Source: a virus. Taken from it: a DNA stretch of 64,000 nucleotides. Each line of letters starts with the position of its first letter. Within the stretch, counting starts at the first letter, position 1. Positions 2,151-61,661 of the stretch are shown one piece after another. The position numbers were made by a program, and so were the translations under genes. The stretch is taken from positions 14,795 to 78,794 of the IMG/VR virus record IMGVR_UViG_3300021093_000045. One strand, 5' to 3'. The notes below the pieces were generated by a model, which made no database searches, had not been told where the DNA came from, and worked only from the letters and a program-made list of their open reading frames with translations.

Positions 2151-4046
2151 ATGCATAAATTTATATATCCAGCAAAAGATACATACATAAACAACTCATC
2201 TAAGTATGAAAGTAAAAATTTTGGTATAGATGAAACACTAGAAATTTATGCGTCAAATAAAGGTGCTGAGACATTGTTTACCGATATAAATTGGCATACA
2301 CCACCACAAACCACACAATCATATGGTAACGAAGGATGGCTAGCATATACTACATCATCTCTTTATGTATACTCTGGCAGTATGTGGAGAAAATTTGATC
2401 TTGTATCTGATACAATAGCTAACACGACTTTCATCGCAAATTTTACAGGTAGATTATCAAATGTAACAAGTGTTCCCAGAAAGAGATTATTTGTATCTGG
2501 TTCTGCAGGTTTTTCATCTGGATCATTCAGTGGTAGTTATAACTTTACAAATAATTATTTTTACGCTAGTGGATCTTGGACAACAGGTAGTTTTTCGGGT
2601 TCTGTAAAATCTGGTTCGAAATTTACCAAATTAAATATGGGTCCACGAAACTATATAGTTTCTCCATTGACCGCATCATTAACTGGAACAGGTAGTTTTA
2701 AGAATCTTCAAGGTATTATAAATGGCAGATCAAATACTGGTCTCCCAGTTAAAACAGGTTTTTACAGACCTGTTAGTGCTTTTAGAAGTGGATCCTTTAG
2801 TGGAACATTTTCATCATCTCATTTTAATGGATTTATTCAAACCATAACATCATCAACATTATATTATGCAGATGTTGTAAACTTTATTGGTTATTTTGAT
2901 GGAATGTACGATGGTACATTTGCAAAACCTTCGACTGCAACGTATCTACTATATCCAGAATTTTCCAGAACTTTGGTTAAATTCGATTTGACACAATTAA
3001 GCCAATCAATCGCATCGAATCAAATTTCAAGTTCACATATCAAGTTTACATTGAACTTAAAAGCTTGTGGTGCTAGAAATCTTCCACTGGATTATAAAAT
3101 ATATGCGTATCCACTAAGTGCAAGTTGGGAAAATGGTAATGGTCGTTATGCAGATAATGGTAGTAAAATGGGTGCTAGTTGGGACTATAGAAACTATAGT
3201 GGAAGTGGATTGTGGTTTGGTAATTCAATATCACGCAGTTACGAAAAAATAGATTATTTGTTAACTTCATCATATGCTACTGCAAGTTTTAAAAATCAAG
3301 GCGGAACTTGGTATTATGATGTGCCACAATCATATAATAACAAATCTAAATGGATATGTAGCTCTTCATTTTTTCCAGGTTTAAGTGGATCTAGCCTGAT
3401 TGCAAGTCAATCATTTACATTTGGTGCTCAAAGTGATATAAGTATGGATATCACAACCATGGTAAGATCTTGGTTATGCGGTTGTGTACCTAATAATGGA
3501 TTAATATTGATTACATCATTAGAACTTAGTACACCACCTTTAGATTATACCGATGGATTATTACAATTCTTCAGTAAAGAATCAAATACTATATATTCTC
3601 CATACCTAGACGTAGCATGGGATGATGTAGTATTTAATACAGGTAGTCTAGCTCCATTAACCGGATCCACTGAAAATTTAATCAATATTCAGTATTTAAA
3701 ACAAGCATATAAGGCTGGTAGTATTCCAAAAGTTTTTGTATTTGGTAGGGATAAATATCCACTTAAATCTTTTAGCAAAGCATATCAACAACCTGTTATG
3801 GTTACTCCAAAGTATTTGCCAACATCATCATATTACATGATTAAGGATGCTGAATCGGAAGAAGTACTCATCAATTTTGATAGATATACTAAATTGAGTT
3901 GTGATGCAAATTTAGGCAATTATTTTATAATTGATACTTCAGGATTACCCCAAGAAAGATATTTCAAAATACTTATTAAAGTAGAATATGATGATGGTAC
4001 CGTCGACATAACGGATACTGGCAAAATATTTAAGATTGTAAGATGA
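2151..4046 (+). CDS. Virion structural protein (DNRLRE-like baseplate-associated protein with Ser/Gly-rich insertion)
   Basis: KDTYI...SRTLVKFDL...WENGNG...DISMDIT...NNGLIL...FFSKES..YSPYLDVAW pattern; lies in the baseplate operon. Confidence 0.55.
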   Translation: MHKFIYPAKDTYINNSSKYESKNFGIDETLEIYASNKGAETLFTDINWHTPPQTTQSYGNEGWLAYTTSSLYVYSGSMWRKFDLVSDTIANTTFIANFTGRLSNVTSVPRKRLFVSGSAGFSSGSFSGSYNFTNNYFYASGSWTTGSFSGSVKSGSKFTKLNMGPRNYIVSPLTASLTGTGSFKNLQGIINGRSNTGLPVKTGFYRPVSAFRSGSFSGTFSSSHFNGFIQTITSSTLYYADVVNFIGYFDGMYDGTFAKPSTATYLLYPEFSRTLVKFDLTQLSQSIASNQISSSHIKFTLNLKACGARNLPLDYKIYAYPLSASWENGNGRYADNGSKMGASWDYRNYSGSGLWFGNSISRSYEKIDYLLTSSYATASFKNQGGTWYYDVPQSYNNKSKWICSSSFFPGLSGSSLIASQSFTFGAQSDISMDITTMVRSWLCGCVPNNGLILITSLELSTPPLDYTDGLLQFFSKESNTIYSPYLDVAWDDVVFNTGSLAPLTGSTENLINIQYLKQAYKAGSIPKVFVFGRDKYPLKSFSKAYQQPVMVTPKYLPTSSYYMIKDAESEEVLINFDRYTKLSCDANLGNYFIIDTSGLPQERYFKILIKVEYDDGTVDITDTGKIFKIVR

Positions 4047-4047
4047 T

Positions 4048-4521
4048 ATGGCAAATATACCATTAGTTTATAACGTATCTTTAGTAGATATTCAAAAATT
4101 TAAAGATTTTGGGACATTCGCCAATAACTTTGATGAGTTTGGAAATCTAAAACAAGTGTATTCTGTTAGTCAATCGGTAAGTGGTAGTTTAAATTACGTA
4201 AATCTTCCTTTGAAAGCATTTGTGTATAATGAATCAAAAATTGAAGATACAAATACATTAGATTTTACAGAATTACAAACTCCTGCCGCCGCTGATAATA
4301 GAAATATCAATACGGTAATAGAAGAATATAATAAAGCCATAGCTGAAAATCGTATTTTGAACGAAACTATAAATGAATTGGTTACAAAATATGAAGATAG
4401 TGATGATAAACAAGTTATTGCTGCTATGAAAAGCGAAATTATTAATCTTAGAATCGAACTGGGACAGGGGAATGCAGCGTCTGATTTTGGAGATGACTTC
4501 CCGTTTTTACCACTAATATAA
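4048..4521 (+). CDS. Hypothetical protein with C-terminal coiled coil (baseplate operon)
   Basis: 157 aa ORF packed 1 nt from both neighbours. Confidence 0.6.
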   Translation: MANIPLVYNVSLVDIQKFKDFGTFANNFDEFGNLKQVYSVSQSVSGSLNYVNLPLKAFVYNESKIEDTNTLDFTELQTPAAADNRNINTVIEEYNKAIAENRILNETINELVTKYEDSDDKQVIAAMKSEIINLRIELGQGNAASDFGDDFPFLPLI

Positions 4522-4522
4522 T

Positions 4523-59673: not shown

Positions 59674-59676
59674 TTT

Positions 59677-60249
59677 ATGGCTATCCCAAATTCACCACAA
59701 TATCCACAGCAAAATCCTGCGTTTAAAGAATATTGGACACAAGGAAGAAAAGATGTTGGGATTTATAATCCAAATTATTTGCCAGGTAGATTTTATTCAA
59801 AAAGAGATATGAACTTATTAAGTTCTGTTAACGCAGAATTTTTTGGTGATATCGCTGAAATAGTTGTACAAGTGTTTAAGATTGCTATTAACGAAACTAC
59901 CGTAAACATGTATGGTGAATCAGTTTCTTCACAAGGTAAAATGTTTTATCCGGCAATTAATCTTTCATGTTTAGCCGAACGTGAAGATATAACTGGTGAA
60001 AATGCATCAAAATTTGGTCCTGACAGAAACCAAAACACAATTTTTAAGTTCAGAGAACGTGATTGTATTATTACAAACTTTTTTCCAGAAATTGGAGATG
60101 TTGTTTTGTATAACGAAAGATTTTATGAAATGGATAATGTTGTACAAGAACAATTCCTTGGAGGTCACCCAGATAAGTCTTGGAGTTTAATAGTCAATAC
60201 TCACTATACGAGATTAAGTAAACTAAATATCATACAAAGACAAAATTAA
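59677..60249 (+). CDS. Neck / head-closure protein (T4 gp14-like)
   Basis: NMYGES, FPEIGDVVLY..FYEMDNV; position after the gp13-like gene. Confidence 0.7.
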   Translation: MAIPNSPQYPQQNPAFKEYWTQGRKDVGIYNPNYLPGRFYSKRDMNLLSSVNAEFFGDIAEIVVQVFKIAINETTVNMYGESVSSQGKMFYPAINLSCLAEREDITGENASKFGPDRNQNTIFKFRERDCIITNFFPEIGDVVLYNERFYEMDNVVQEQFLGGHPDKSWSLIVNTHYTRLSKLNIIQRQN

Positions 60250-60251
60250 TT

Positions 60252-61661
60252 ATGCCATGGCAAGTAAGTTCAATATCTAATAATCAAGTAAATCCTGTAC
60301 CAAACATGGTGCAAGATCCAATGGCACAATCTGACAAAGATATCACATATAAGCGCCAATTTGCTATACGTCGTGATACAGATGAAGTAAAAAATCTCAC
60401 GATAGATTTGATGGACATTGATAGTACCATTATGGGTTTTATCAATAATAAGATCAATCTACAAGTGATGGATAATGGTGAATTGGTTAAAGTACCTATC
60501 ATATATGGTAGTCCAGAAAGATGGGCCGCTATGAAAAAAGATGGGTATATTAGAGATAATCAAGGTAAAATACTATTGCCTGCATTTATGATGAGACGCT
60601 CAGAAGTTGCGGATAATAAGGATCGTGCTACGTTTAATCGTTATTTGGCATATCAAGCTATTGTACCTTATTCAGAAAAAAATAAGTATGACAGATTCAA
60701 CATCTTAAACAGCAACATATTGTTTAATTCTAGACCAACCAAACAAATATTCACCGTAACATTGCCTAAACAAGTCATAGTTACATATGAATGCGTAATT
60801 TGGACCGATTATGTTGATCAAAATAACAAACTTTTAGAAGAAATAAGTTACGCTTGCAATGATTATTGGGGTGATAAAGAAAGATTTAAGTTTTTGGTAA
60901 AAGCTGATAACTTTACCACCGATATTGAGTTGGATGATACCAATGATAGAAATGTTAAAACCACATTCAATTTAACCGTAAATGGTTATTTGTTGAATCC
61001 ATCGTTTATACCTGGCCTAGAAGGTATCAAGAATACTACCCAAAAGATGTTTACCATCAGAAAGATTAAGTTGATGGAGGCTGCGGTAGATGCTGAACAG
61101 ATGGATAATATTAAGAATAATGCAAAACAATATGGTTTCGAAGATACAACAGCTATTAAAGATAAACAACAAGATTTTGATTATGTTGATGGAGTGGGTG
61201 TACAGCCTATAGATAAAAATATTATAAAGGATGTATATCCAACTGAAAAGAAATCTGTTTCTATCACAAAGATTCCATTTCACCCACCGCCAAAAAGTTC
61301 AAACGAATATGGAGAAAATGGTTGGCTCGCATACGATTCAAATTATATCTATATATATCAATACCCTCTCGGTTGGATGAGAAGAGCTATTTCTGTGTTC
61401 GATTATGATCCTTCTACCAGTACCTATATAAGTGGCTATGATGAATGCAATAATCCAATATATACAACAAGTTCTCGTAGACCTATAAATACAGCATTTA
61501 GAGTATTTCAACGATTCCCAGATAAGTTTTATCAACAAACACCAGTTCAATCAAATGATTATGGTCAAGATGGTTGGATAAGCTATGATGGTAATTATTT
61601 TTATATTTATAGCGCGGGTCAATGGAGAAGAATAGTTACATCATTGTTTCAGTCATATTAA
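60252..61661 (+). CDS. Tail terminator / sheath stabiliser (T4 gp15-like) with two C-terminal fibre-type modules
   Basis: VKVPIIYGSPERW, ILLP, P..V.VTYE..IWT....NKLLE; C-terminal YG..GW..YD.NY.YIY...W.R twice. Confidence 0.75.
   Translation: MPWQVSSISNNQVNPVPNMVQDPMAQSDKDITYKRQFAIRRDTDEVKNLTIDLMDIDSTIMGFINNKINLQVMDNGELVKVPIIYGSPERWAAMKKDGYIRDNQGKILLPAFMMRRSEVADNKDRATFNRYLAYQAIVPYSEKNKYDRFNILNSNILFNSRPTKQIFTVTLPKQVIVTYECVIWTDYVDQNNKLLEEISYACNDYWGDKERFKFLVKADNFTTDIELDDTNDRNVKTTFNLTVNGYLLNPSFIPGLEGIKNTTQKMFTIRKIKLMEAAVDAEQMDNIKNNAKQYGFEDTTAIKDKQQDFDYVDGVGVQPIDKNIIKDVYPTEKKSVSITKIPFHPPPKSSNEYGENGWLAYDSNYIYIYQYPLGWMRRAISVFDYDPSTSTYISGYDECNNPIYTTSSRRPINTAFRVFQRFPDKFYQQTPVQSNDYGQDGWISYDGNYFYIYSAGQWRRIVTSLFQSY

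Follow-up and report, generated by a model that had tools for sequence, protein, structure and literature searches.

Serine-rich repeat adhesins carry long, disordered, low-complexity tracts of Ser-x-Ser repeats with a small middle residue, which are O-glycosylated by the cytoplasmic GT-B enzymes GtfA/GtfB (GT, glycosyltransferase). GmaR of Listeria monocytogenes, a cytoplasmic GT-A enzyme, O-glycosylates Ser/Thr on a self-assembling surface protein. The bacterial autotransporter heptosyltransferases (BAHT) of Escherichia coli, exemplified by the pairs TibC-TibA and Aah-AIDA-I, are also cytoplasmic; they are specific for Ser and target numerous short Ser-Gly/Ala sites located between beta strands. 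In the case of TibC, the modified residue is Ser and never Thr, at N-S-G-G and T-S-A-A sites that lie between short strands, and the family is known only from bacterial adhesins (PMC4358343). In phages, mycobacteriophage glycosyltransferases have been proposed to decorate the phages' own structural proteins (Freeman et al. 2023, Cell Host Microbe, as cited in PMC12582341). The present study concerns a 64,000-nucleotide stretch of viral DNA (positions 14,795 to 78,794 of IMG/VR record IMGVR_UViG_3300021093_000045, hereafter the window), in which the tripeptide Ser/Thr-Gly/Ala/Ser-Ser ([ST][GAS]S, hereafter the motif) recurs in tail, baseplate and neck proteins. An earlier note on this DNA had regarded the motif as a candidate virion-wide sequon of phage-encoded O-glycosyltransferases. 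We found that the motif excess is real but lies in a subset of proteins, not the whole virion. Our leading, if tentative, reading of the sequences is that it constitutes a glycosylation tag.

The window represents the region of late genes in a large uncultured lake myovirus that has a T4-like core and a G+C content of ~31%. It encodes a gp6-like wedge, tail sheath, large terminase, portal, prohead protease, gp23-like capsid protein, gp13-like and gp15-like neck proteins and a collagen-like fibre. As the whole contig spans 78.8 kb and relatives have genomes of ~300 kb, including G005 (296 kb, 100% complete) and G001 (304 kb, 89% complete), about one quarter of the genome is covered. Among named phages, Flavobacterium phage immuto and Microcystis phage Mel-JY01 are the closest.

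Motif occurrences were counted per protein and compared with shuffles of the same protein's residues, with a second control in which shuffling was restricted to blocks of 20, 40 or 80 residues to guard against Ser/Gly-rich segments. Six tail, baseplate and neck proteins, comprising the 631-, 1480- and 365-amino-acid (aa) proteins, the FG-GAP repeat protein, the sheath and the gp13-like protein (Table 1), together contain 97 sites against 23.3 expected, and 37 against 2.9 when a hydrophobic residue is specified on both sides. The ordered hydrophobic-flanked peptide is 4 to 13 times above chance in these six. Block shuffles of all three sizes gave the same outcome (z stays 4–8), ruling out a global or local composition artefact. 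The motif was said to be rare in enzymes, and 15 enzymes pooled indeed have 5 sites where 6.5 are expected; nine other virion or morphogenesis proteins have 11 (7.8 expected). No excess was found in the gp6-like wedge (1 site, 1.5 expected) or, by the per-protein shuffles, in the portal, protease, gp15-like protein and the product of 33594–34361. The ordered, composition-corrected excess is thus confined to exposed virion proteins, as an enzyme-read tag would require, with exposure deduced from what each protein is (sheath insertion, neck, baseplate periphery) rather than from coordinates. Every peptide quoted in the earlier note is present in the gene to which it was assigned, and the density it described on structural proteins holds for the six, including the sheath insertion and neck. 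It fails for the wedge, portal, protease and gp15-like protein, and with them the virion-wide extent. The capsid protein, also named as a carrier, is intermediate: its own count is not significant (Table 1), and its orthologues have 4–7 sites against ~2 expected.

Within the rich proteins the sites are unevenly placed. All but one of the 19 sheath motifs fall inside a lineage-specific insertion (residues 126–962), and the 631-aa protein contains a tandem SGS/TGS array at residues 116–235. The possibility that the rich proteins share recently homologous domains or repeats was considered as a source of the motif and rejected, as an all-versus-all BLASTP comparison gave only two short, unrelated similarities; otherwise the rich proteins show no BLAST similarity to each other, and the proposal that an ordered motif has converged on unrelated outer proteins is upheld. 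We also observed that the last 39 residues of the 365-aa and FG-GAP proteins are 46% identical, and that the gp15-like protein (60252–61661) has a C-terminus similar to residues 26–98 of the 631-aa protein.

The motif has a defined internal order. When every a-x-b tripeptide was scanned across the pooled proteins of the window, enrichment (observed/expected) was seen for SGS (31/7.8), TGS (21/6.3), TSS (25/8.9), SAS (17/6.5) and SSS (22/11.6), and none for SGT (6/6.6), TGT (9/6.0) or SAT (1/5.6). Since SGS and TGS are elevated 3–4-fold and SGT and TGT are at expectation, position 3 must be Ser. Position 1 is Thr in ~40% of sites. Based on 894 sites from four divergent genomes, positions -1 and +3 are hydrophobic in 46–74% of cases (34% background), position -3 is also hydrophobic where the middle residue is Ser or Ala, position +1 is small, and charged residues and Pro are depleted around the motif. 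A DNA-level cause was examined and dismissed: the codon combinations at 120 sites are diverse and mirror the Ser codon usage of the genome as a whole, which indicates that selection acts on the peptide.

Orthologues retain the motif over considerable evolutionary distance. The 631-aa protein has hundreds of metagenomic homologues, and at 14 of its 24 sites the motif persists in 80% or more of the 109 homologues that are below 72% identity. Ser and Thr interchange at position 1 and Gly, Ser and Ala at position 2, so that one site reads LTGST, VTGSI, VSGSI or VSSSI across homologues, every variant fitting the motif. In the sheath and 631-aa families, the position-3 Ser is kept in 69–77% of cases compared to 48–64% for other Ser, and changes to Thr in 4–5% compared to 11–12%. 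Motif positions are highly conserved at 60–70% identity, and counts are unchanged in orthologues at 30–60% identity. Orthologues of the 1480-aa protein have 22–29 sites (~5 expected) even at 30% identity, those of the 365-aa protein 5–9 (~2 expected), those of the FG-GAP protein 12–22, and all those of the gp13-like protein 6–7. The 1480-aa protein and its 30%-identical G005 orthologue have 23 sites each, with 7 of the 23 in a shared column, although this estimate of site turnover is based on alignments at 32–63% identity, which are imperfect at such distance. Together the counts and positions suggest that both how many sites there are and where they lie are under pressure.

The excess is a property of one clade. 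Motif counts are at expectation in T4, cyanophage S-H38, Rhodothermus phage RM378 and the 484-kb phage LR756508 (sheath 43% identical). On these grounds we rejected the idea that myovirus sheath, baseplate or fibre proteins show the excess generically. By comparison, immuto has an excess in one protein (17 sites, 2.9 expected) and in its sheath (10, 3.7 expected), and Mel-JY01 in its sheath (11, 3.2 expected) and neck protein (5, 0.8 expected). An excess that is confined to one clade, spans several unrelated folds and is specific to residue order and to Ser points to a clade-specific reader. We propose that the pentapeptide hydrophobic-[Ser/Thr]-[Gly>Ser>Ala]-Ser-hydrophobic may serve as a recognition tag on outward-facing tail, baseplate, sheath-insertion and neck proteins. 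It would belong to a single clade of aquatic phages, which have genomes of roughly 300 kb and a T4-like core, and be read by a factor specific to that clade. The most plausible candidate reader is an adjacent pair of phage enzymes, a GT-B protein of ~440 aa and a GT-A protein of ~220 aa, that would attach an O-linked sugar to the invariant Ser in the cytoplasm, either ahead of assembly or while it proceeds. We infer the attachment of a sugar, the residue that would bear it and the possession of the pair by this phage. The mycobacteriophage precedent for phage-encoded virion glycosylation, to the extent that it is described in PMC12582341, was counted in favour of the tag.

The motif could instead be a purely structural element to which nothing is attached, an amphipathic beta strand or strand end with the Ser/Thr hydroxyls on one side and a small residue between two large hydrophobics on the other, inherited and regenerated by lineage-specific beta-rich outer domains and fibre repeats. 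We consider this somewhat unlikely, although several results favour it, and some of them also weigh against the tag. The flanking preferences described above (hydrophobic residues at -3, -1 and +3, a small +1, few charged residues or Pro) suit such an element, as do the high positional conservation at 60–70% identity and the independence of the motif from both glycosylation islands described below. Structure predictions are also relevant. The AlphaFold model of the 631-aa protein has a pLDDT of 55 overall and 84–93 over residues 100–260, the motif-dense part, which is modelled as long beta strands; its C-terminal domain is predicted to be an Ig/FN3-like sandwich (fold matches at Z 8–9). The model of sheath residues 100–620 has a pLDDT of 67, and a fold search with the sheath insertion was without match. 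In blocks of these two models with a pLDDT of at least 70, read for secondary structure and confidence only, 11 of 23 motifs (about half) lie in strands, 9 (~40%) at strand ends or in tight connections from one strand to the next, 2 in helix and 1 in a loop. The models hence do not bear out an expectation that motifs would occupy surface loops. In fibre proteins of relatives, motifs form tandem repeats of 4, 6 or 9 residues, for example NITASNISASGYISAS and LTGSLSTSGSLGVTGS in the arrays of G005 and immuto fibre proteins. The 631-aa protein and two G005 fibre proteins could not be assigned to a family using Pfam, PHROGs, a PDB sequence search or the ESM Atlas.

On the other side, a physical propensity should be universal, and the lack of an excess in the beta-rich sheath, baseplate and fibre proteins, whether homologous or analogous, of T4, S-H38, RM378 and LR756508 argues against pure structural physics. 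The motif also occurs in differing folds and secondary-structure contexts, helix included. Furthermore, the asymmetry between S-G-S and S-G-T and the suppressed Ser-to-Thr exchange are unexpected for an exposed strand, which would usually favour Thr.

As for the candidate reader of the tag, G005, G001, immuto and Mel-JY01 each have side-by-side genes for a 436-aa GT-B protein and a 222-aa GT2 protein. The GT-B member is present in 6/6 relatives whose contigs reach that region, irrespective of whether they have a TibC-like gene, and among 50,697 named phage records was found only in immuto and Mel-JY01. The pair is absent from T4, S-H38, RM378 and LR756508, giving concordance between pair and motif excess in 7/7 lineages or phages tested, few of which are independent contrasts. 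The best solved match of the GT2 member, a GT-A enzyme, is the flagellin O-GlcNAc transferase GmaR (E 4e-6). Similarity to GtfA was looked for and none was found. In the two near-complete relatives, the pair is located near DNA polymerase B within a conserved sugar cluster (G005 4469–27243; G001 214–265 kb), together with a DegT aminotransferase, a thiamine pyrophosphate (TPP)-dependent enzyme, a NodZ-like transferase, two radical-SAM/SPASM proteins and several genes of the GT4 type. A link to glycosyltransferases in general was discarded as uninformative, as GT2/GT4 genes occur in every genome examined.

Several of these observations count against the pair as the reader or against glycosylation itself. 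The co-occurrence of pair and motif is confounded by descent, which largely explains it and leaves perhaps two independent contrasts, and many other clade-specific genes would follow the motif equally well. The GmaR match is weak, with a teichoic-acid GT2 scoring almost as well. No copy of the pair was found on this contig, which holds ~1/4 of the genome, and the position of the pair in a sugar-nucleotide cluster near the DNA polymerase means that it could instead modify DNA or host glycans. To these may be added the imperfect estimate of site turnover noted above. The tag could also be read by another clade-specific factor, such as a kinase or other modifying enzyme, an assembly chaperone or a docking decoration protein. 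The arguments from clade and order specificity apply equally to such a factor, and co-occurrence with the pair is inseparable from co-occurrence with any clade-specific gene. We nevertheless regard this alternative as quite improbable: no candidate gene was identified, and the conserved Mom-family gene near the capsid gene belongs to a DNA-modification family.

The earlier note had linked the motif to a TibC-like gene of the window, and the enzyme itself is as described. Residues 338–708 of the 25184–27328 product align to TibC residues 21–386, nearly the full length of that protein. Taking the list of key residues from PMC4358343, the equivalent of the catalytic base Asp-110 is conserved, the sugar-binding Thr-226, Lys-230, Arg-286 and Trp-305 are all identical, Pro-300 (D,D-heptose selectivity) is also Pro, and all four cysteines of the iron finger (Cys-339, 342, 358 and 370) are aligned. 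By these residues the domain is a true member of the BAHT (TibC/Aah) family. There is no autotransporter substrate gene beside it in the window, its neighbours being transferases and the sheath gene.

If this cassette (22222–29489) were the reason for the motif, coating the whole particle through it, the two should vary together. Among 80 related sheath loci, the cassette is a variable island: it lies between SbcCD and sheath in 32, and the SbcCD-sheath gap is ~115 bp in 19. Sheaths have on average 22.6 motifs with the island (7.3 expected) and 20.2 without it (6.0 expected). G001 and G005 have no TibC-like or companion GT4 gene anywhere, in searches with positive controls at E 1e-74 to 1e-163. 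Orthologue by orthologue, motif counts are equal in TibC-positive and TibC-negative genomes, and the expected correlation of motif density with the gene is therefore absent; the motif does not exist for the TibC-like enzyme. The genuine BAHT membership, the adjacency of the island to the sheath gene and a loose resemblance of N-S-G-G and T-S-A-A (PMC4358343) to hydrophobic-S-G-S-hydrophobic speak for a TibC sequon. Set against these are the missing island at 19 of 51 sheath loci and in G001 and G005, the identical counts, the high frequency of Thr at position 1 and the perfect co-occurrence of the TibC-like gene with collagen-like fibres. We consider a particle-wide TibC sequon very improbable, and as the reason for the existence of the motif it is refuted. 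When present, the cassette may opportunistically use pre-existing motif sites. What is retained of the proposed sequon is the possibility of a glycosylation tag read by another enzyme.

Table 1 Coordinates of features in the window. Site counts are motifs observed versus expected from shuffles
Feature	Position	Strand	Evidence and remarks
631-aa baseplate-region protein	2151..4046	+	Densest carrier; 24 vs 5.1, z 8.8
1480-aa baseplate/fibre-region protein, no family assigned	4523..8965	+	23 vs 5.4, z 7.8
365-aa protein	9657..10754	+	Weaker excess; 5 vs 1.6
Second accessory island	10785..14631	.	(Pro-Thr)68 stalk, GT32-type glycosyltransferase, 182-aa open reading frame (ORF), convergent 2OG-Fe(II) oxygenase
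827-aa FG-GAP repeat (beta-propeller) protein	14727..17210	+	Pfam FG-GAP_2 E 4e-24; 19 vs 3.7, z 8.1
Accessory glycan island	22222..29489	+	FkbM methyltransferase, GT4, GT4-TibC fusion, carbamoyltransferase, unknown gene (Pfam, PHROG)
GT4 + TibC/Aah-family serine O-heptosyltransferase domain (residues 338-708)	25184..27328	+	PDB 4RAP E 1e-71 (phmmer)
Tail sheath, 1311 aa	29566..33501	+	PHROG and Pfam sheath matches; 19 vs 6.6, z 4.9
Major capsid protein	45002..46768	+	4 vs 2.3, not significant; weak excess in insertion
gp13-like neck/adaptor protein	58456..59673	+	PHROG_211; 7 vs 0.9, z 6.4
Proline-free Gly-Thr/Ser-Ser collagen-like fibre	61713..63998	+	Pfam Collagen E 2e-41; open at contig end

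The TibC-like cassette is a separate, optional system from the motif and has a different candidate substrate. Among 17 records, the TibC-like domain and collagen (PF01391) are both present in nine and both absent in eight, with no exceptions; the pattern is seen in two sub-clades (records G001–G029), and the window is a tenth positive. Each triplet of the collagen-like repeat has Ser then Gly, as at one TibA site. From this co-occurrence, the target of the TibC-type island is most likely the Gly-Ser/Thr collagen-like fibre, which would be heptosylated. The contig ends within the collagen repeat, which probably broke the assembly, and long minus-strand ORFs that overlap the collagen-like gene (61946–63862) are most likely artefacts of the G+C-rich triplet repeat.

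The second accessory island is unrelated to the motif. Its stalk protein contains an uninterrupted (Pro-Thr)68 tract (residues 237–372, nucleotides 11493–11900) and a Cys-rich C-terminus, and two of its enzymes match PF04488 (GT32-type, DXD) and PF13640 (2OG-Fe(II) oxygenase). The 182-aa ORF has the PHROG label 'ferrochelatase' and no Pfam match. Orthologues of the three enzyme genes were found in none of the seven relatives compared. An extended reading, which we judge distinctly unlikely, is that one virion would carry three protein-glycosylation systems encoded by the phage, with a separate substrate code for each: the clade-wide Ser tag with the glycosyltransferase pair and, as optional systems, the collagen-like fibre with TibC and the (Pro-Thr)68 stalk with a hydroxylase and GT32.

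Further genes of the window are of separate interest. Upstream of the sheath region, SbcD-like and SbcC-like nuclease parts are fused in a single 1062-aa ORF (19032–22220) that has 55–79% identity in relatives. A GIY-YIG homing endonuclease gene (46878–47615), absent in 7/7 relatives compared, lies directly 3' of the capsid gene, and is followed by a 177-aa ORF present only in this phage in the comparison with seven relatives. The Mom-family gene (48270–49061, minus strand; Pfam E 5e-43) is on the opposite strand amid head genes and is 77–88% identical across all relatives, above most structural proteins. The product of 51830–52486 has a prepilin-like N-terminus (PHROG pilin match, residues 2–38).

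Should the tag prove to be a site of glycosylation, the large freshwater and marine phages of this widespread clade would sugar-coat their tails via a short, readable code. Virion glycosylation would then extend well beyond mycobacteriophages, and a sequence rule predicting glycan-shielded phage surfaces would be available, with a bearing on host recognition, stability and losses to grazing or adsorption. The cultured phages immuto and Mel-JY01 hold both the tag and the candidate pair, making the proposal directly testable. If the motif is structural, it is still an unusually sharp clade-specific signature by which outer virion proteins can be recognised in genomes that otherwise resist annotation. 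The TibC-collagen co-occurrence provides a likely substrate for a phage branch of an enzyme family known from adhesins. A literature search returned no relevant report of the motif or of heptosylated phage fibres, and no account of aquatic myoviruses whose folded tail proteins bear an ordered internal Ser tag.

Compared to the described systems, the window enzyme shares its catalytic Asp, sugar-binding residues and iron finger with the E. coli BAHT enzymes, but its TibC-like domain is fused to a GT4, has no autotransporter nearby and tracks a proline-free collagen-like fibre. The similarity of the candidate GT2 enzyme to GmaR is limited to the GT-A core, and the phage enzyme is without the regulatory part of GmaR. 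In contrast to the tracts of serine-rich repeat adhesins, the motifs occur as isolated pentapeptides, flanked by hydrophobic residues and set within folded beta-rich domains. The mycobacteriophage case, as far as it is set out in PMC12582341, differs in phage group and enzymes, the phages considered here being myoviruses of aquatic Gram-negatives or cyanobacteria, and what distinguishes the system proposed here is a short, ordered internal motif, recognised from sequence alone, that is spread over many tail proteins.

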